A stretch of DNA of 64,000 nucleotides, from the NCBI GenBank assembly GCA_030432635.1, contig JAUIMB010000011.1:54124-118123 (forward strand), read 5' to 3'. The notes beneath the pieces are model-generated. The model was not told where the DNA came from. It searched no databases and was given only the letters and a program-made list of their open reading frames with translations. Positions 13,991-43,228 of the stretch are shown here, one piece after another; within the stretch, counting starts at the first letter, position 1, and the number at the start of each line of letters is the position of its first letter. Position numbers and translations under genes: made by a program. Source of the DNA: Bacteroidia bacterium (lineage in GTDB: Bacteria; Bacteroidota; Bacteroidia; Flavobacteriales; Flavobacteriaceae).

Positions 13991-15721
13991 ATGATACCAA
14001 TAGAACCGCAATTATTAGAGCGCATAAATACTTGGCTCACACCAACATTTGATCAAGATACCCAAGATAAGATAAGGCACATGATTGCCAACAACACCAA
14101 AGAACTCGAGGAGAGCTTTTACAAAGATCTTGAGTTTGGAACAGGAGGCATGCGTGGTATTATGGGAATTGGCACCAATCGCATTAACAAATTTACACTG
14201 GGTAAAAACACCCAAGGGTTGAGCAACTACCTCAAAACACAATTTCCTTCAGAAACGATTAAGGTGGCTATTGCCTATGACTGTAGACATAACAGTAAAC
14301 AATTGGCAAAACTAGTGGCTGATGTATTTTCTGCAAATGATATCATGGTTTTTTTATTCGAAGACTTAAGACCAACTCCTGAATTATCCTTTGCATTAAA
14401 ACATCTTAATTGTCATTGCGGAATTGTTTTAACCGCATCCCACAATCCACCAGAATACAATGGTTATAAAGTGTATTGGCAAGATGGTGGGCAACTAGTG
14501 CCTCCTCATGATGCTGAGATCATTTCAGAAATCAATCGATTGGATTATTCCGAAATAAAATTTAAAGCCAACGACGATCTCATTCAATATATTGGAAAGG
14601 ATGTCGATGATGTATTCATTGATAATTCAATTAAAAACGGAAGTTTTGATACCACAACAAAAGCAAAGCAAAATCTCAATATCGTTTTCACGTCTTTACA
14701 TGGCACATCGATTACGGCTATCCCTGAAACCCTTGAACGTGCTGGCTATTCCAATGTTCATGTTGTGGAAGAGCAACGCATGCCAAATGGCGATTTTCCT
14801 ACGGTAAAATCACCTAACCCTGAAGAACCAGAAGCACTCAAAATGGCTATGGAACTCGCCGAAAATGTGGATGGCGATATCGTAATAGGAACTGATCCTG
14901 ATTGCGATCGTTTAGGTGTTGTCGTGAGAAACCTCGATAATGAACTGGTCATACTAAATGGCAACCAAACCATGTTGCTAATGACCGATTTCCTTTTAAA
15001 GCAATGGAAAAACGCAGGGAAAATAAATGGAGAGCAATTTGTCGCCTCTACCATAGTCTCCACTCCAATGATGTCGGTGTTGGCTAATGCCTACAACGTA
15101 GAATGTAAAATCGGACTCACAGGTTTTAAGTGGATCGCAAAAATGATTAAGGACTTCCCTGAACTCGATTTTATAGGTGGTGGTGAAGAAAGTTTTGGTT
15201 TTATGGTTGGTGATTTCGTGCGTGATAAAGATGCTGTAACATCTACACTTTTAGCATGCGAGATTGCAGCTCAAGCAAAGGCAAAAGGATCATCAATGTA
15301 TCAAGAGTTGATTCAGCTATATGTTGAGCACGGATTTTATAAGGAACGATTGGTTTCACTTACCAAAAAAGGTATTGAAGGCGCTAGGGAAATTAAGCAA
15401 ATGATGATTGATGCACGCGAAAATCCTTTAAAGGAAGTGAATGGCTCTAAAGTGACTCGAATTGAAGACTACCAATTATCAACCGTAAAAGATCTTTTTA
15501 CCCAAAAGGAAAGTAAGATAGATATCCCAAAATCCAATGTATTGATATACTACACCGAAGATGGTAGTAAAATTGCATTGCGACCAAGTGGAACGGAACC
15601 TAAGATAAAATTCTATATCAGTGTTAATACATCACTAGACAATATGTCAGCATTTCAAACTACGGAACAAGAATTGGAGCGTCGTATTGACAACATCCTT
15701 AAGGATATGAACCTCAATTAA
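13991..15721 (+). CDS. pgm: Phosphoglucomutase/phosphomannomutase
   Basis: [25 protein letters not shown] and [10 protein letters not shown] motifs; TACTTTTG promoter at 13964-13971. Confidence 0.92.
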
Positions 15722-17556
15722 TGGATTACATCAAGAAACTTTCACGGTTTATAATTCCGTATAAGAAGTATGCATTCCTGAATATCTTTTTCAATATTCT
15801 GTATGCGCTTTTTGGGACGTTATCGTTCGTTTCCTTGATGCCTATGCTTAAGGTATTACTGAAAACCGCTGAACCCATTTTAAAGAAGCCGTTGGCTTCA
15901 GATTATGATGGGTTTTTGGAATATGGTGACTACCTTGAAAACTATCTCAACTATTTTATCACACAGAAAATTGCTGAAGATGGCCAATACAGTGTCTTAA
16001 TTTTGATGATTTGTATCGTATTGGCTACGTTCCTTCTGAAAAATGCAGCAGGTTACTTTTCAAATTTCTTCTTAGCCTATTTAAGAAATGGAATTCTCAA
16101 GGATATTAGGAATGAGCTTTATGAAAAAACAGTAGAATTGCCTGTATCGTACTTCTCTGAAAAGCGAAAAGGTGACATTATTGCTCGTATTTCTGCAGAT
16201 GTCAATGAAATTCAAAATTCACTTCTTGCTATCCTAGAGTTGCTTGTACGAGAACCATTGACCATTATATTCACAATAATCGTAATGTTTAGCATCAGTT
16301 TGAAGCTTACGATTTTTGTATTTGTTTTTATTCCTATTTCTGGAATCATCATTTCTTGGGTTGGAAAGAGCTTGAAAAAGCATTCCAATCGTGTCCAGCA
16401 GGAAAATGGCGTATTCTTGTCGGTGTTGGATGAAACATTAAACGGATTGAAAGTCATCAAGAGCTTTAATTCCGAATCGCGTTTCATGTCAATATTCAAG
16501 AATTCAACATCACGACTATACAAGTACTCGAATGATTTGGCACATCGACAAAACCTAGCATCACCTACATCGGAGTTTTTGGGCATTGTTGTAATCGCTG
16601 TGATTTTGTTATATGGTGGACGTATGGTTTTGGTTGACAAAACCTTGACGCCTGATGAATTCATTACCTACATGGCGTTGGCATATAATATATTGACACC
16701 TGCCAAAGCGATTAGTAAAGCGAGTTATAAAGTAAAAGCTGGCAATGCTTCAGCAGATCGTGTCCTTGACATCTTAAATACAACGTCTAGTTTAAAAGAT
16801 GATGTCAATGCTAAAACCAAGGAAGATTTCAACACTGAGATTTCGCTGAGCAATGTGTCGTTTAAATATGAAGATGATTTGGTGCTCAAAAATTTCAGCA
16901 TCAAGGTACCCAAAGGGAAAAGTGTCGCATTGGTTGGACAATCAGGTAGCGGCAAATCAACAATTGCCAACTTGGTCACACGCTTTTATGACGTGACCGA
17001 AGGAACAATTTCGATAGATGGCACCAATATCAAAACCTTGACCAAAGCCTCCTTACGTGGTTTGATGGGATTGGTAACCCAAGACTCGATTCTGTTTAAT
17101 GATACGATCAGAAATAATATTTTGATTGGTAAGGAAGACGCTTCGGAAGAAGCTATTATTGAAGCACTTAAAATTGCCAATGCTTGGGAGTTTGTTAAAG
17201 ACCTTCCAAATGGAATTGACACGAATATTGGAGATGCTGGTGGAAAATTATCTGGTGGACAAAAACAACGTCTCAGTATTGCCCGAGCTGTTTTAAAGAA
17301 TCCTCCAATCATGATTTTGGACGAAGCGACCTCTGCATTGGATACCGAAAGCGAGCGTTTGGTGCAAGTGGCTCTCGAGAACATGATGAAAAACCGAACT
17401 TCAATTGTTATTGCGCATCGCTTGTCGACTATTCAAAACGCAGATGAAATTATCGTGATGCAAAAAGGTGAAATTGCTGAGCAAGGCACACACAATGAAC
17501 TCTTGGCAAAAAATGGTGTCTACAAAAAATTGGTGGACATGCAGAGCTTTGAGTAA
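15721..17556 (+). CDS. ABC exporter, permease plus ATPase (MsbA-like)
   Basis: TMD followed by GQSGSGKST, LSGGQKQR, ILDEATSALD and IAHRLST. Confidence 0.92.
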   Translation: MDYIKKLSRFIIPYKKYAFLNIFFNILYALFGTLSFVSLMPMLKVLLKTAEPILKKPLASDYDGFLEYGDYLENYLNYFITQKIAEDGQYSVLILMICIVLATFLLKNAAGYFSNFFLAYLRNGILKDIRNELYEKTVELPVSYFSEKRKGDIIARISADVNEIQNSLLAILELLVREPLTIIFTIIVMFSISLKLTIFVFVFIPISGIIISWVGKSLKKHSNRVQQENGVFLSVLDETLNGLKVIKSFNSESRFMSIFKNSTSRLYKYSNDLAHRQNLASPTSEFLGIVVIAVILLYGGRMVLVDKTLTPDEFITYMALAYNILTPAKAISKASYKVKAGNASADRVLDILNTTSSLKDDVNAKTKEDFNTEISLSNVSFKYEDDLVLKNFSIKVPKGKSVALVGQSGSGKSTIANLVTRFYDVTEGTISIDGTNIKTLTKASLRGLMGLVTQDSILFNDTIRNNILIGKEDASEEAIIEALKIANAWEFVKDLPNGIDTNIGDAGGKLSGGQKQRLSIARAVLKNPPIMILDEATSALDTESERLVQVALENMMKNRTSIVIAHRLSTIQNADEIIVMQKGEIAEQGTHNELLAKNGVYKKLVDMQSFE

Positions 17557-18618
17557 TTATCGAATGCGTTGAATTTCAAAATAAGTCTTTCCAGTAAAAT
17601 TGTCTATCTCAACACCATTAGGACCATTCGATGCGTCATTGGGTTGATAGTTCTGAACAAATATTTCCACATAGTCGTTCACATTTAAATAAAAGGTGCA
17701 ATTAATCGAACGGCTAACATCACCAACACTATAGTGGTTAGCTGAAGACTCTTGAAGCAGCACGTTATTGACGTACACAGCAATTCCATAATATTGCGTA
17801 TTATTTTGAAATGCAGTATGAAATCCTGCGTTGATTGTATAATACCCAGCATTATTCGCAACAAATCTATTATTAGCCACCGAAAACTCAGTATTGGTAT
17901 CATATAGTACCGTATCAAAGGTAATCTTCTGCCAACCTGTGGTGTTTAGAATTTGATTTGCTGCAAGATTTACTCTACATAAGGAAAACGTATTGCTGTC
18001 TTTATCCACCCATGAAACGACACCTGCACCATCTGTTTCCATAATTTGATTAGCAGTACCACGACTTTCTGGCAAAATATAATTATCTGTAACCGTCTGA
18101 CCGATAGACACCTTTCCTCCCAAAAAATAGCCAGAATAAATATCATTGTTGGCTGCGGTACCATTGACACTACTGTAAATACCGTAAACATTACCTGTAT
18201 TGCCAGCATTGGTGATATCGGCATAAAAACCATAACTGTTACTATTAATACCAGTAGCCTGACCTATAAAACTGTACATACCAAACATATCGGTTGTACC
18301 AGCACCAGAATTTGGCTTATATACTTCACTATAAACACCATAACGTGTTGCTGTTCCTGCGCCTGAAACATTGCTAAAAATACCATATTTGGAAGCCGTT
18401 AATGAAGGACGACTCGAATTGGTAAGATGAAGGCTATATGTATTTTGCTGTGCTGTGGAGGTACTATTAAGTTCTACCTCAACTCCCTTGCGCTCTGATG
18501 TTGCAGTAGCTTCGGTTACCACGTGCAACTGGGCTGTAGGTGTTGTCGTCCCAATACCTACCTGAGCATTGATCAACATAGGCAAGCTTCCCATAATAAA
18601 GAAAAGAATCTGTTTCAT
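17557..18618 (-). CDS. Secreted fibre-like protein with C-terminal C1q/TNF-like domain
   Basis: Signal peptide plus QVGIGTTTP motif; G/Y/S-rich repeats (YGIFS, YGVYS, FGMYS, YGFYA, YGIYS); C-terminal ITFDTVLYD...FVANNAGYYTINA...LNVNDYVEIFV pattern. Confidence 0.6.
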   Translation of the reverse strand: MKQILFFIMGSLPMLINAQVGIGTTTPTAQLHVVTEATATSERKGVEVELNSTSTAQQNTYSLHLTNSSRPSLTASKYGIFSNVSGAGTATRYGVYSEVYKPNSGAGTTDMFGMYSFIGQATGINSNSYGFYADITNAGNTGNVYGIYSSVNGTAANNDIYSGYFLGGKVSIGQTVTDNYILPESRGTANQIMETDGAGVVSWVDKDSNTFSLCRVNLAANQILNTTGWQKITFDTVLYDTNTEFSVANNRFVANNAGYYTINAGFHTAFQNNTQYYGIAVYVNNVLLQESSANHYSVGDVSRSINCTFYLNVNDYVEIFVQNYQPNDASNGPNGVEIDNFTGKTYFEIQRIR

Positions 18619-18716
18619 ACTGATTTACGATTAAACAAAAAATCAAGTTCATTAAGATAAGGTATTTTGAAATAAAATCATAACCTGCTGAAACAAAAAG
18701 GGATGGAGTCATCAAT

Positions 18717-18801
18717 AAAAAAAAGGATGTAACTTACGTCAACATCCTTTTGTTCCTATCACCATATTTGGGGACGATGGCAATAGTTAAGTAGGTTAGG
18801 C
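18717..18801 (-). ncRNA. Candidate small RNA or 5' leader (two hairpins, the second a terminator)
   Basis: Minus-strand TATGTTTG promoter at 18807-18814; 10-bp stem CUAUUGCCAU/AUGGUGAUAG with loop CGUCCCCAAAU; terminator GGAUGU..GAC-GUAA-GUU..ACAUCC-U8. Confidence 0.6.
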
Positions 18802-18848
18802 TGACACAAACATAGATGAAATATTTGATGTATGCAAGAAAAAAATGT

Positions 18849-18878
18849 ATTTCATCGTTATTATTATACATTTCATCG
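18849..18878 (-). promoter_or_regulatory. LytTR-type direct repeat (ATTTCATCG-N12-ATTTCATCG on +)
   Basis: Two identical 9-mers with a 21-bp period, 35-64 nt upstream of the minus-strand -7 element. Confidence 0.65.
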
Positions 18879-18983
18879 ATGTTTTTTGATTCAATATATT
18901 GATTATCATGTATTTAAAATTTTAAAGTTTTTTCATTAAACTTTTCAGTACTTTGAGGTGTCTTATGGAAAACGTATTTTTTA

Positions 18984-19529
18984 TTGGAGAACGAAATTGA
19001 CTTAATACAACGATTGGGTACCGTAACAACTAAGGAAGCTGCCTTTAAAGAATTGCTGGCACTATACAAGGAACGTCTGTATTGGCATATTCGGCATATA
19101 GTAAAGTCTCATGATGATGCCGACGATGTATTGCAAAACACCTTCATTAAAGTTTACAAAAACATTCATAATTTTAAAGGCGACAGTAAACTTTATTCTT
19201 GGCTGTATCGGATCGCAACCAATGAATCCATTACACACATTAACAAGAATAAAAAGCGGTTGAATATTGGCAGTTTTGAAATACACGACCATATGATGAA
19301 TAAACTAAAGGCAGACGTTTATTTTGAAGGTGATGAAATTCAGTTTAAATTACAACAAGCAATAGCTACTTTACCTGAAAAGCAACAATTGGTATTTAAT
19401 ATGAAATATTTTCAGGACATAACATATCGCGACATGTCTGAAGTTCTTGATACAAGTGAAGGAGCGCTCAAAGCTTCTTATCATATCGCAGTAAAAAAAA
19501 TTGAGGCGTATTTAAAACGTGAGGTATGA
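18984..19529 (+). CDS. ECF sigma-70 factor (TTG start)
   Basis: Region 2 DADDVLQNTFIKVY/SWLYRIATN; region 4 LPEKQQLVF...YRDMSEVL. Confidence 0.92.
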   Translation: MENEIDLIQRLGTVTTKEAAFKELLALYKERLYWHIRHIVKSHDDADDVLQNTFIKVYKNIHNFKGDSKLYSWLYRIATNESITHINKNKKRLNIGSFEIHDHMMNKLKADVYFEGDEIQFKLQQAIATLPEKQQLVFNMKYFQDITYRDMSEVLDTSEGALKASYHIAVKKIEAYLKREV

Positions 19530-41600: not shown

Positions 41601-42497
41601 AAATTAGCCAATGTCATTCAGAGCGAACGCGAAGAATCTGAGATTGCCACGTCGCAAGCTCCTCGCAATGACAGTTCAATGTCAGGTCGAGCGCAGTCAA
41701 GACCTCTTGACAACCTCTCGACTGCGCTCGAGGAGACAAGAGTAAGACCTAAAGCAGCCATCCTACGTGAAAAAGGAAGCAACTCTGAACGCGAAATGGC
41801 AAATGCCATGTACCTTGCTGGTTTTGATGTCAAAGACGTCCATATGACCGATTTGATTTCTGGTCGTGAGACCTTGGAAGACATTCAGTTTTTAGGTGCG
41901 GTTGGTGGATTTTCGAACTCTGATGTGTTAGGCTCTGCAAAAGGTTGGGCTGGTGCCATTAAATACAACGAGAATGCAAATAAAGCCATCAAGAAATTCT
42001 TCGAAAGAAGCGACACCTTATCAGTTGGAATCTGTAATGGCTGTCAGCTCTGGATGGAATTGGATCTAATCAATCCTGATCACGAGACGCATGGAAAAAT
42101 GGTCCATAATGATTCACATAAACATGAGAGCGCTTTTACTTCAGTGACCATTCAGGAGAATCGCTCTGTGATGTTGTCTTCACTTGCAGGAAGCACGTTA
42201 GGCGTTTGGATATCACATGGTGAAGGGAAATTTGATCTTCCATATGATGAGAGCAGCTATGACATCGTTGCCAAGTATGGCTATGCCGAATATCCATCAA
42301 ACCCTAATGGTTCAGATTATAATACTGCCATGATGTGTGATGCTTCCGGTAGGCATTTAGTGACGATGCCACATATAGAACGTTCAACATTTCAGTGGAA
42401 TTGGGCCAATTACCCTAAAGGAAGAAAAGATGATGTATCACCTTGGCTTGAAGCTTTTGTGAATGCTCGTAAATGGATAGAAAAAACAACTAATTAA
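38679..42497 (+). CDS. purL: Phosphoribosylformylglycinamidine synthase (large fused form)
   Basis: NSEHCRHKIFN, KAETHNFPT, IHDHGAGG, GICNGCQ and SHGEG motifs; TAAATTTG promoter at 38649-38656. Confidence 0.97.
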   Translation: MIHFFGNQNSKVFAVQATKELSTETISKLTWLFGNQPKIEQASIDAFFVGPRAAMITPWSTNAVEITQNMGISGILRIEEFESVSETFKDFDPMLSEKFKRLDQDIFAIDIKPEPILNIADISAYNEEEGLALSDEEVDYLNDVSKRIGRPLTDSEVFGFSQVNSEHCRHKIFNGTFIIDGEEKPTSLFKMIKETSKQNPNDIVSAYKDNVAFIKGPIVEQFAPKRADVPEYYETKDFESVISLKAETHNFPTTVEPFNGAATGSGGEIRDRLAGGKGSIPLAGTAVYMTSYSRLESDRPWEQKFEARKWLYQTPIDILVKASNGASDFGNKFGQPLICGSVLTFEHDETHDVTLNSVEGYQPRKLGYDKVIMQAGGIGYGKADQAIKDIPKTGDKVIILGGENYRIGMGGAAVSSADTGEFSTGIELNAVQRSNPEMQKRAANAVRGMVESDENPIVSIHDHGAGGHLNCLSELVEDTGGQIDLDKLPVGDPTLSDKEIIGNESQERMGLVIAEEHLDALHKIAERERSPIYDVGEVTGDHRFTFESKTNGNKPMDLAMSDMFGSSPKTIMTDKTIDRKYEAITYHTDAIYDYLDQVLQLEAVACKDWLTNKVDRCVGGKVAKQQCVGTLQLPLNNVGVMALDFNGKEGIATSIGHAPISGLINPKAGSRNSITEALTNIIWAPLKDGLQSVSLSANWMWPCKNEGEDARLYQAVQAISEFAIDLGINVPTGKDSLSMKQKYPEGDVISPGTVIISAAANCNDIANVIEPVFQKNAGSIYYINISQDAFKLGGSSFAQILNKIGNDVPSVQSANYTKTVFNTIQDLIKSGKIVAGHDVASGGLITTLLELCFAENELGAALDISELKETDSLKVLFAENPGIVFQSNDDSVEQVLTEANIEFFNIGKVTQSDVLSIINHDEVFTMTVSRLRDVWYRTSFLLDQKQTSNGLAQDRFENYKNQPLQFKFPKHFTGKLANVIQSEREESEIATSQAPRNDSSMSGRAQSRPLDNLSTALEETRVRPKAAILREKGSNSEREMANAMYLAGFDVKDVHMTDLISGRETLEDIQFLGAVGGFSNSDVLGSAKGWAGAIKYNENANKAIKKFFERSDTLSVGICNGCQLWMELDLINPDHETHGKMVHNDSHKHESAFTSVTIQENRSVMLSSLAGSTLGVWISHGEGKFDLPYDESSYDIVAKYGYAEYPSNPNGSDYNTAMMCDASGRHLVTMPHIERSTFQWNWANYPKGRKDDVSPWLEAFVNARKWIEKTTN
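39735..39758 (+). repeat. REP-like GTC-initial element inside purL
   Basis: GTCACTCTGAATTCTGTCGAAGGG, read in frame as VTLNSVEG. Confidence 0.55.
41613..41737. repeat. Cluster of four REP-like palindromic units (two inverted pairs) in frame within purL
   Basis: GTCATTCAGAGCGAACGCGAAGAATCT; revcomp of GTCATTGCGAGGAGCTTGCGACGTGGCAATCTC; GTCAGGTCGAGCGCAGTCAAGACCT; revcomp of GTCTCCTCGAGCGCAGTCGAGAGGT. Confidence 0.8.
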
Positions 42498-43228
42498 CGT
42501 AGCAATTTTTCCAAAAACTCTTGTTTATTTCGCCTAGACACAGGTAGTTTTTTTCCGTTTTCCAAAACGACATAACCACCATCATTCTTATTGAATTTTG
42601 TAATATAATCGAGATTCACCAAATGGGATTGGTGGATTCTAAAAAAACCAAAATCACTGAGCATCGTGTCGTATTCCTTGATTGTTTTTGAAACAACAAT
42701 ACGCTTATCGTTAGCCAGGAAAATAGAAGTATAGTTGTCATCAGCTTCACAATGCACAATCTGGTTGAGTTTTACAAGTTCAATGCCTTCGGAAGTAGGA
42801 AAGGCTATTTTCTTGATACTGCTCTGATTTCCTAATAACACTTCCAGTTTATTATGAATACCTTTGAGGCCAATTTCCTTTTGATACTTCTCAATGGCTT
42901 CTATCAATTCTTGCGGATTTATAGGTTTCAACAAATAAGCAATCGCGCTAATTTGAAATGCCTTGATGGCATAAGCACTGTATGCGGTTACAAAAATGAC
43001 ACTGAATTGAATGTCATCAAAAGATTCCAATAATTTAAATCCTGTTCCATCAGTCATCTCTATATCGAGAAACACCAATTCGGGTTGCTTATCCTTAATC
43101 AATTCGATTCCGGTTGCAACACCATCTGCCTCTCCTAAAACCTCTACAGTCTTGCAATATTTCTGCAAAAAATTGGAGAGTGTTTTCCGACTCTTTTTTT
43201 CGTTATCAATTATGACACTTTTGATCAT
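42494..43228 (-). CDS. LytTR-family response regulator
   Basis: REC domain (LVFLDIEM, FVTAY, YLLKP) plus LytTR domain (EADDNYT, FFRIHQSHLVN, LPVSRR). Confidence 0.93.
   Translation of the reverse strand: MIKSVIIDNEKKSRKTLSNFLQKYCKTVEVLGEADGVATGIELIKDKQPELVFLDIEMTDGTGFKLLESFDDIQFSVIFVTAYSAYAIKAFQISAIAYLLKPINPQELIEAIEKYQKEIGLKGIHNKLEVLLGNQSSIKKIAFPTSEGIELVKLNQIVHCEADDNYTSIFLANDKRIVVSKTIKEYDTMLSDFGFFRIHQSHLVNLDYITKFNKNDGGYVVLENGKKLPVSRRNKQEFLEKLLR

Follow-up and report, generated by a model that had tools for sequence, protein, structure and literature searches.

The stretch of DNA analysed here, called the window throughout, comprises 64,000 nucleotides from the genome of a member of the Flavobacteriaceae listed as Bacteroidia bacterium (GenBank assembly GCA_030432635.1, contig JAUIMB010000011.1, positions 54,124 to 118,123 of the forward strand). 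On its minus strand, upstream of a divergently transcribed gene for an extracytoplasmic function (ECF) sigma factor, lies a predicted small RNA gene that we name sRNA-1. Its parts, its neighbours and the candidate mRNAs discussed below are collected in Table 1. From comparison with genomes of the same genus (Psychroserpens) and of other Flavobacteriaceae genera, we argue that sRNA-1 very likely represents a real small RNA family, undescribed as far as Rfam and literature searches show. We propose, more tentatively, that it pairs with a second flavobacterial small RNA, Rfp13, whose near-invariant unpaired segments are complementary to the only two sRNA-1 motifs that stay fixed outside its helices.

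Table 1. Features of the sRNA-1 locus and candidate mRNAs predicted to be bound by Rfp13. Plain numbers are positions in the window; positions with a C label lie elsewhere in the same genome (G000).
Feature	Position	Strand	Basis or remark
sRNA-1, predicted, about 86 nt	18717..18802	-	Inferred start A18802 to end of the U8 tract; fold
-33 promoter element TTCTTG	18835..18840	-	TTG at 18837-18835; invariant in the genus alignment as TTTTTCTTG
-7 promoter element TATGTTTG	18807..18814	-	Consensus TAnnTTTG; conserved in all 20 genus sequences
Motif A, UAACCUACUUA, unpaired 5′ tail	18788..18798	-	Perfectly complementary over 11 nt to the Rfp13 hairpin loop UAAGUAGGUUA
Stem-loop 1: 10-bp stem, two G-U pairs, 11-nt loop	18756..18786	-	Minimum free energy fold
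Motif B, CCCCAAAU, in the loop	18766..18773	-	Perfectly complementary over 8 nt to the Rfp13 single-stranded linker AUUUGGGG
Intrinsic terminator: A-tract, imperfect 9-bp stem, GUAA loop, U8	18717..18751	-	Sequence and fold
Proximal direct repeat CGATGAAATACA	18846..18857	-	21 bp from the distal repeat; 5 nt before TTCTTG (8 nt before TTG)
Distal direct repeat CGATGAAATGTA, candidate transcription-factor half-site	18867..18878	-	Genus form aTCGATnAAgTGtA; also in other genera
ECF sigma factor gene, divergent, constant neighbour	18984..19529	+	Pfam Sigma70_r2, r4_2; NCBIfam ECF superfamily
353-aa secreted-protein ("fibre") gene	17557..18618	-	Signal peptide; between sRNA-1 and the MsbA-like gene here; outside the unit
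MsbA-like ABC exporter gene	15721..17556	+	Pfam ABC_membrane, ABC_tran; convergent neighbour in all relatives
Predicted target: 123-aa type IX secretion cargo protein	C19:64015-64386		Energy ranking
Predicted target: 75-aa Fer4_19 protein, 4Fe-4S mono-cluster	C13:215582-215809		Energy ranking
Predicted target: MAM-domain giant protein	C19:10173-15920		Energy ranking
Predicted target: PorP/SprF protein	C12:27886-28887		Energy ranking
Predicted target: lipoprotein	C32:37827-38264		Motif scan, not energy ranking

The gene has the layout of a free-standing transcription unit. Its promoter has the form TTG-N20-TATGTTTG and is kept in 20 genus sequences and in about 28 other genera, where the -7 box reads TAtgTTTG or TAaGTTTA. 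The 20-nt spacer between the -33 and -7 elements fits the sigma-A layout of Bacteroidota (see PMC9723704). The position of the start, and with it a length of about 86 nt, is deduced from promoter geometry, since the flavobacterial sigma-A box is placed at -12 to -5 (PMC9723704). In stem-loop 1, positions 18786-18777 pair with 18765-18756 around the loop CGUCCCCAAAU (18776-18766), and the G-U pairs of this stem fix its strand. A minimum free energy fold of 18802-18712 reproduced both hairpins at -23.7 kcal/mol (z = -3.8, with 0 of 200 shuffles as good), whereas the opposite strand folded no better than chance (z = -1.6). An earlier note on this DNA, made from the letters alone, had pointed to the -7 element, the stem, its loop and the GUAA/U8 terminator on the minus strand, and had observed that the G-U pairs form on that strand only; every one of these elements lies where the note had put it. 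A generic promoter and terminator scan, built on an E. coli-type consensus, was uninformative: it picked up neither the Bacteroidota promoter nor the terminator, the latter presumably owing to the bulges and G-U pairs of its stem.

The statement in the same note that the unit holds no open reading frame (ORF) stands as far as conservation goes, since no coding frame is conserved, but it does not hold to the letter: a 45-aa ORF (18871-18734) overlaps the unit and starts upstream of the promoter. A coding reading of this ORF was rejected, as its start precedes the promoter, indels of 1 nt and 5 nt break the frame in relatives and there is no conserved start codon.

The unit is conserved within its genus. 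BLAST recovered the block in 23 of 24 same-genus genomes at 71–80% identity, with matches that stop at the terminator (~18721-18715). An alignment of 20 species has an invariant promoter, an invariant 5′ tail AGCCUAACCUACUUA and a loop, UGUCCCCAAAU, that barely varies; paired cells make up 94.3% within the genus, nine pairs have changed on both sides and the covariation score was reached by none of 500 shuffles. A covariance model of sRNA-1 (R1) recovered the gene itself with 84.6 bits (G000:C4:72839-72925(-), which is window 18716-18802), and both R1 and a paralogue search found it to be single-copy in its own genome. One full-length match of at least 75 bits was present in 33 of 39 Psychroserpens genomes, with two in one contaminated assembly. 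Beyond the genus, R1 matched in 41 of 150 sampled Flavobacteriaceae genera (E <= 1e-4) and had no match in 110 genomes from 17 other families of the order. Gaetbulibacter, Mangrovimonas, Gelidibacter and Aquaticitalea are among the carriers outside the genus. Over 29 genera, in an alignment that was fitted to the covariance model, so that the covariation figures are to be read with that caveat, 20 of 23 pairs vary on both sides, 94.5% of cells are paired as against 42–64% in slid controls, and 0 of 500 shuffles reached the covariation score. Stem 1 accounts for 10 of 10 such pairs (93.9% of cells paired) although its sequence is largely replaced between genera, for example from UAUUACCAU/AUGGUAAUA to UGUUGUUAG/CUAACAAUG, and the terminator stem carries many compensatory changes among relatives. 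The earlier note had named a covariance model built from homologues as a check; both helices covary within the genus and across 29 genera.

What remains fixed outside the helices over the 29 genera is limited to AACCUACU in the tail and CCCCAA(A/G)U in the loop, whose CCCCAA core is invariant in 28 of them. The C-rich loop that the earlier note had pointed out is one of two conserved unpaired motifs; the note missed the other, in the 5′ tail, along with the complementarity of both to Rfp13.

The genomic address is constant as well. All 10 strong and 18 of 20 weak R1 matches of other genera lie between the divergent ECF sigma operon and the convergent MsbA-like gene, the exporter having been traced in other genera by tblastn; the two remaining weak matches (L117, L125) were discarded by synteny as false positives. 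In the genus the next gene is convergent at all 19 loci examined. The divergent operon runs in the order ECF sigma factor, a 177-aa protein and a Spy-CpxP-like protein, and the best NCBIfam match of the exporter is MsbA_lipidA, at 508 bits, under the model's 602-bit cut-off. The convergent ORF of relatives stops 30–70 nt beyond the sRNA-1 terminator, which in those species probably also ends the MsbA-like gene. Taken with the promoter, the terminator and the covariation, synteny bears out the proposal of the earlier note that an independent non-coding small RNA gene, running from promoter to terminator, is encoded here.

R1 undercounts the family. Five R1-negative genera were looked at: at the sRNA-1 locus there is a clear homologue in one, a tandem pair of divergent copies in another and a divergent RNA in a third, while the other two carry the terminator alone. 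Because R1-negative genera carry RNA at the same locus, the family is wider than 41 of 150 genera. The clear homologue lies in G084:C5:113827-117360 (L262) and the two tandem copies, each with direct repeats, in G060:C3:128722-132252 (L265). The earlier note did not recognise a named family, and in this it was right at every threshold tried: Rfam gave no match over the whole window at gathering thresholds, and a permissive scan of 18500-19100 gave no score above 23 bits.

A candidate partner emerges from the tail motif. The motif A 10-mer has an exact complement at 10 sites in the genome, two of which are tandem promoter-to-terminator units of about 75 nt that adjoin a sod-like gene (G000:C20:317274-317557; L132:1273-1557, minus strand). 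Each of these units has the complement of motif B 13 nt downstream of that of motif A, and both fold into a hairpin followed by a terminator (z about -4) with the loop AUAAGUAGGUUAAG and the single-stranded linker AGAUUUGGGGC. The same loop and linker are printed for Rfp13 in supplement 9 of PMC9723704, which identifies the two units as members of the Rfp13 family. Rfp13 has been detected in Flavobacterium psychrophilum as a tandem small RNA, is remarked there to be “induced under iron depletion” and has only computational targets listed (PMC9723704). We find it in all 39 genus genomes; over the first 44 nt, 60 Psychroserpens copies do not differ at all, and 56 copies of 28 other genera hardly do. 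A covariance model made from Rfp13 copies (R2) places it in 123 of the 150 sampled Flavobacteriaceae genera, with one to six copies each, and every genus with sRNA-1 also carries Rfp13. No Rfam family matches Rfp13, our literature search found no paper on its function or on an Rfp13 sponge, and searches with sequence strings of both RNAs returned unrelated papers only.

Two further elements of the genome resemble Rfp13. A conserved non-coding element of about 125 nt at G000:C36:106335-106462 (-) (L200:1336-1463), 74–92% identical in 39 of 39 Psychroserpens genomes, opens with GUAGUAGGUUAGGUAUUUGGGGU, an Rfp13-like two-part module, and ends in a terminator; its module complements sRNA-1 slightly better than Rfp13 does, and the element could encode a further small RNA of this network. 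Degenerate Rfp13-like modules (GUAGUAGGUUGUGGUAGAUUUGGGGCAAAAAAG and a weaker second one) also occur at G000:C20:328716-328866 (-), beside a tandem CGATnAAnTGyA site of the kind described below.

In its own genome 11 nt of the sRNA-1 tail would pair with Rfp13, at -15.3 to -16.3 kcal/mol, and 8 nt of the loop, at -12.5 kcal/mol. These energies, which are moderate, are from segment-wise duplexes, as a full-length RNAduplex calculation ignored intramolecular structure and gave a meaningless long duplex. Both perfect complements fall in regions that are unpaired in both RNAs. From site counts we estimate that exact complements of both motifs within 40 nt of each other would be expected about 0.02 times by chance in the genome, and they occur together only in Rfp13-type RNAs and on the antisense strand of one C32 mRNA start; relaxed patterns of the motif pair gave 13 occurrences against ~6 expected, mostly chance matches. 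The comparative evidence is a stronger argument for pairing than the energies in this one genome. Over 29 genera the mean duplex energies are -14.7 kcal/mol for the tail and -17.1 kcal/mol for the loop, with p <= 0.01 against shuffled Rfp13 segments in 21 of 29 genera for the tail and 18 of 29 for the loop, and the fixed unpaired positions of sRNA-1 are exactly those that pair with Rfp13. Loop variants in which AAAU becomes AAGU retain the pairing through a G-U pair. The variable flanks tend to lengthen it, as in AACCUACUUAUGUU over 14 nt and GCCCCAAAUCUA over 12 nt, while the variant CCCCAAGUCUA pairs over 11 nt with one G-U. About nine genera have a third C-rich site in the terminator loop, at -13 to -18.5 kcal/mol.

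Several observations weigh against an interaction with Rfp13, or against its working as a decoy. Ranked by summed duplex energy, Rfp13 of the same genome comes only 92nd among ~470,000 windows, and dinucleotide shuffles yield p = 0.013 for the tail and p = 0.14 for the loop. Cofolding of the two RNAs gave a change in free energy (ddG) of -11.1 kcal/mol (z = -1.1), a value matched by 14 of 150 shuffles, in a calculation that cannot model a hairpin loop pairing with a linear strand. Motif A precedes motif B on sRNA-1 in the same 5′-to-3′ sense as their complements on Rfp13, so a single continuous antiparallel duplex cannot form, and eight base pairs would put a loop of 11 nt under strain. Because Rfp13 never varies, compensatory changes between the two molecules cannot be scored; both motifs might also be conserved on account of another partner, and the genera are related by descent, so that counts across them overstate their independence. 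The list of transcribed regions of F. psychrophilum has nothing with motif A, and the array signal of Rfp13 in that species reaches up to ~17 on a log2 scale (PMC9723704). A single-copy decoy might fail to titrate a multi-copy, probably abundant RNA.

The two Rfp13 segments also have candidate sites on mRNAs. When the genome is ranked by energy against them, translation-initiation regions come top after the Rfp13 loci themselves; a run-length scan that tolerated G-U pairs proved too permissive, with chance matches, and the energy ranking was used instead. The predicted target mRNAs bear the two motifs of sRNA-1 around the AUG in the order B then A, so that on them a single antiparallel duplex with Rfp13 is possible. 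Because these mRNAs carry the same two motifs, sRNA-1 looks like a non-coding carrier of Rfp13 target sites. The gene for the type IX secretion cargo protein (G000:C19:63975-64386; L134:1376-1787, plus) is the best predicted target in the genome, with complementarity over 15 and 11 nt and a cofold ddG of -27.7 kcal/mol that no shuffle of 150 equalled. The site on the Fer4_19 mRNA (G000:C13:215537-215809; L198:1538-1810, plus; also L231-L252) is conserved: its 5′ untranslated region retains AACCCCAAA-N-AUCUACUU-AUG in 22 genera among which the rest of the leader diverges. It complements both Rfp13 seeds in antiparallel order (cofold ddG -16.5 kcal/mol, with 2 of 150 shuffles as good). The conserved Fer4_19 site, together with induction by iron depletion, suggests that Rfp13 may be an iron-sparing small RNA that represses an Fe-S protein.

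The explanation we favour, while holding it with some reserve, is that sRNA-1 acts in trans, its tail and loop pairing with Rfp13, and that a decoy role is the likeliest. It would be transcribed from its own sigma-A-type promoter, with the two upstream direct repeats serving an activator, and its transcript would end at the intrinsic terminator. The working parts would be UAACCUACUUA in the tail and CCCCAAAU in the loop, with a third C-rich copy in the terminator loop of some genera. In the cell these motifs would base-pair with the exposed, invariant loop AUAAGUAGGUUAAG and linker AGAUUUGGGGC of Rfp13, the same two segments that Rfp13 is predicted to use on translation-initiation regions of mRNAs for the 4Fe-4S protein and for proteins linked to type IX secretion. 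As a decoy or sponge, sRNA-1 would titrate Rfp13 and relieve its targets. What sequence comparison shows is the gene with its structure, conservation, synteny and complementarity to Rfp13; transcription, pairing inside cells and the direction of the effect, sponge rather than target, we infer. A broader version of the proposal is conceivable but more doubtful, namely that the two RNAs form a circuit in which an iron-induced, multi-copy silencer of Fe-S, surface and type IX mRNAs is matched by a dedicated decoy, located next to the envelope-stress ECF sigma operon, that releases those targets on a second signal, received through a tandem-repeat site that they share. If that were so, the pair would link iron status with the state of the envelope. 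We know of no earlier pair of a small RNA and an anti-small RNA in Bacteroidota, a phylum that is not known to have Hfq, ProQ or CsrA.

The tandem-repeat site consists of the two 12-nt direct repeats upstream of the sRNA-1 promoter, which are kept in every genus examined. Direct repeats of the form CGATnAAnTGyA, 20–21 bp apart, are a genome-wide motif, with 25 of the 28 best tandem sites intergenic; examples are C19:15975-16006, C19:63919-63950, C40:1195-1226, C30:128858-128890 and C12:295264-295295 (all G000). At sRNA-1 the repeats are turned towards the divergent sigma gene as well, which is the commonest orientation at other sites. Tandem sites were seen upstream of sRNA-1 and of two predicted Rfp13 targets, and for the cargo gene the site is 65 nt upstream of the start codon. 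Weaker half-site-like sequences occur upstream of Rfp13 copies, and sequences containing ATCGAT upstream of Fer4_19 genes in other genera. The earlier note had suggested activation by a LytTR regulator. The geometry of the repeats (12 nt, 21 bp apart) would presumably suit a LytTR protein. The genome has 23 genes with a LytTR domain, none of them beside sRNA-1; one lies within the window (ORF 42494-43228), 24 kb away. Nothing ties the repeats to this distant gene or to the LytTR class, and we make no special claim for it.

Two further features were seen between the repeats and the sigma gene. At 18936-18965 (+) lies TTAAAC-N18-GTCTTA, a sequence that the genus keeps as AAAC...GTCTAA and that looks like an autoregulated ECF-type promoter with AAC at -35 and GTC at -10. 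Between it and the direct repeats, at ~18905-18925, there is a short inverted repeat (TGATAATCAAT here) whose arms change compensatorily among species (CTGTAAAACAG, CTAACGATTAG) and which could be either a small hairpin or a protein site.

Other explanations of the conserved motifs have to be weighed. It is possible, though on balance we think it unlikely, that sRNA-1 regulates mRNAs directly, with the C-rich loop and the tail as seeds in the manner of RoxS/RsaE, and that the match to Rfp13 is incidental or reflects a side interaction. Two conserved unpaired motifs are the usual signature of seeds, several coding-region windows outrank Rfp13 by energy, and the loop of this genome has a 13-nt perfect complement (AUAUUUGGGGACG) at G000:C5:32866-32890 (+), with a loop duplex of -23.6 kcal/mol. 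The top matches are, however, G-rich coding sequences with no common position or function, the 13-nt match relies on loop flanks that vary between species, and no conserved mRNA partner was found, whereas the exact complements of both motifs come together only in the Rfp13-type RNAs and on the C32 antisense strand mentioned above. The 13-nt match itself stands in apparent coding sequence, with ~0.1 such matches expected by chance, and may be a possible target or a coincidence.

The same complementarity would arise if sRNA-1 were a target of Rfp13, its stability or its own activity being altered by pairing, or if the two RNAs acted jointly on shared mRNAs. Rfp13 is multi-copy and probably far more abundant, and sRNA-1 shares its motifs with the predicted mRNA targets of Rfp13. 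Sequence alone does not separate this reading from a decoy; it would require a second function of sRNA-1, yet motifs A and B are all that is conserved outside the helices, and we judge it improbable. Rather less probable still is that the fixed motifs are sites for an RNA-binding protein that also recognises mRNA leaders. The motifs do recur in mRNA 5′ regions, and in some genera one molecule has up to three C-rich motifs, which is reminiscent of protein-titrating RNAs; but an invariant, exactly complementary Rfp13 in every carrier genome explains the motifs without a protein, and no candidate protein is linked to the locus.

There is very little to recommend the idea that the locus has no function as RNA and is a control region of the sigma operon at the DNA level, combined with the terminator of the convergent MsbA-like gene. 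The orientation of the repeats towards the sigma gene would agree with it, as would the position of the hairpin in relatives, 30–70 nt past the convergent stop codon with T-runs on both sides. It leaves aside the covariation of all 10 pairs of stem 1, G-U pairs that form on this strand only, a canonical and correctly placed -33/-7 promoter kept in every genus and a stem-loop at least 200 nt from the sigma start codon.

The alternative offered by the earlier note, a cis-acting attenuating leader of the 353-aa “fibre” gene, can practically be set aside, because although the terminator in this genome precedes that same-strand gene by ~100 nt, the gene is absent from this position at all 19 genus and 28 other-genus loci examined, where the convergent MsbA-like gene comes next, and conservation ends at the terminator. 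As the 353-aa gene sits there only in this genome, a leader or attenuator is excluded as the conserved role. Neither Pfam nor NCBIfam has a match for the protein, and its gene, wedged into the locus in this genome alone, looks like a recent insertion.

It is important to understand how the Flavobacteriaceae, a family with a major part in breaking down marine organic matter and with fish pathogens among its members, control their genes after transcription, as this level of regulation is poorly known in them. Rfp18 is the only small RNA of flavobacteria known to have a tested phenotype. The outcome of the present analysis is a new small RNA family that is well supported and has a fixed place in the genome, together with a concrete partner candidate for Rfp13, which is near-invariant over more than 120 sampled genera. 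The conserved Rfp13 site on the 4Fe-4S mRNA further suggests an iron-sparing action like that of RyhB or FsrA. If the pairing between sRNA-1 and Rfp13 holds, it would offer an entry into a family-wide regulatory circuit; if it does not, sRNA-1 is still a solid candidate for Rfam.

Among small RNAs of the same phylum, sRNA-1 shares its plan with its proposed partner: like Rfp13 (THC0290_N_0129) and Rfp15 of F. psychrophilum (Guerin et al., 2021; PMC9723704), it has one hairpin and a terminator, a similar size and its own promoter. It is not a homologue of Rfp13, since R2 matches only the two C20 copies in this genome and R1 misses Rfp13; the motifs of the two RNAs complement each other and are not alike, and Rfp13, unlike sRNA-1, is multi-copy, near-invariant, more widespread (123 versus ~41 of 150 genera) and detected as a transcript. 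The promoter-to-terminator layout is likewise that of the Bacteroidota small RNAs Flavo-1 (Rfam RF01705), GibS, MasB and Rfp18. sRNA-1 did not match Flavo-1 in the Rfam scans, and an Rfam scan and a text search of the supplement found no similarity to GibS, MasB or Rfp18. A Flavo-1 RNA was seen elsewhere in the genome, at G000:C32:7585-7653 (-) (L128:1085-1153), with 45.2 bits against a gathering score of 42.

Outside the phylum, RoxS/RsaE of the Firmicutes have C-rich motifs in hairpin loops, sometimes several and including the terminator loop, as sRNA-1 does. sRNA-1 differs in having no Rfam match and an equally conserved second motif (AACCUACUUA) that is not C-rich. RsaE and RoxS pair with Shine-Dalgarno regions, which most Flavobacteriaceae mRNAs do not have. 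A different parallel is offered by MicA, RybB and MicL, the envelope-stress small RNAs of E. coli that are linked to ECF sigma factors. sRNA-1 is likewise tied to an ECF sigma/Spy-CpxP-like operon and to an outer-membrane lipid exporter gene, and its predicted downstream network consists of surface and secreted proteins; its promoter, however, is of the housekeeping TTG/TAnnTTTG type and not of the ECF type, and its link to the sigma factor is one of position only.

A functional analogue of the arrangement proposed here is RosA, which sponges RoxS and FsrA in Bacillus subtilis (Durand et al., 2021; PMC8216469). RosA is reported to be a stand-alone small RNA whose partners are bound at their seed regions, as is proposed for sRNA-1, and in both cases C-rich segments face G-rich ones. 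The RosA interaction was reportedly established by in vivo crosslinking and genetics, whereas that of sRNA-1 is predicted. There is no homology in sequence or structure, the phylum is another, and in the present pair the decoy would be the C-rich RNA and the regulator the G-rich one. The iron-linked small RNA of the RosA system is FsrA, a place that Rfp13 would hold in Flavobacteriaceae.

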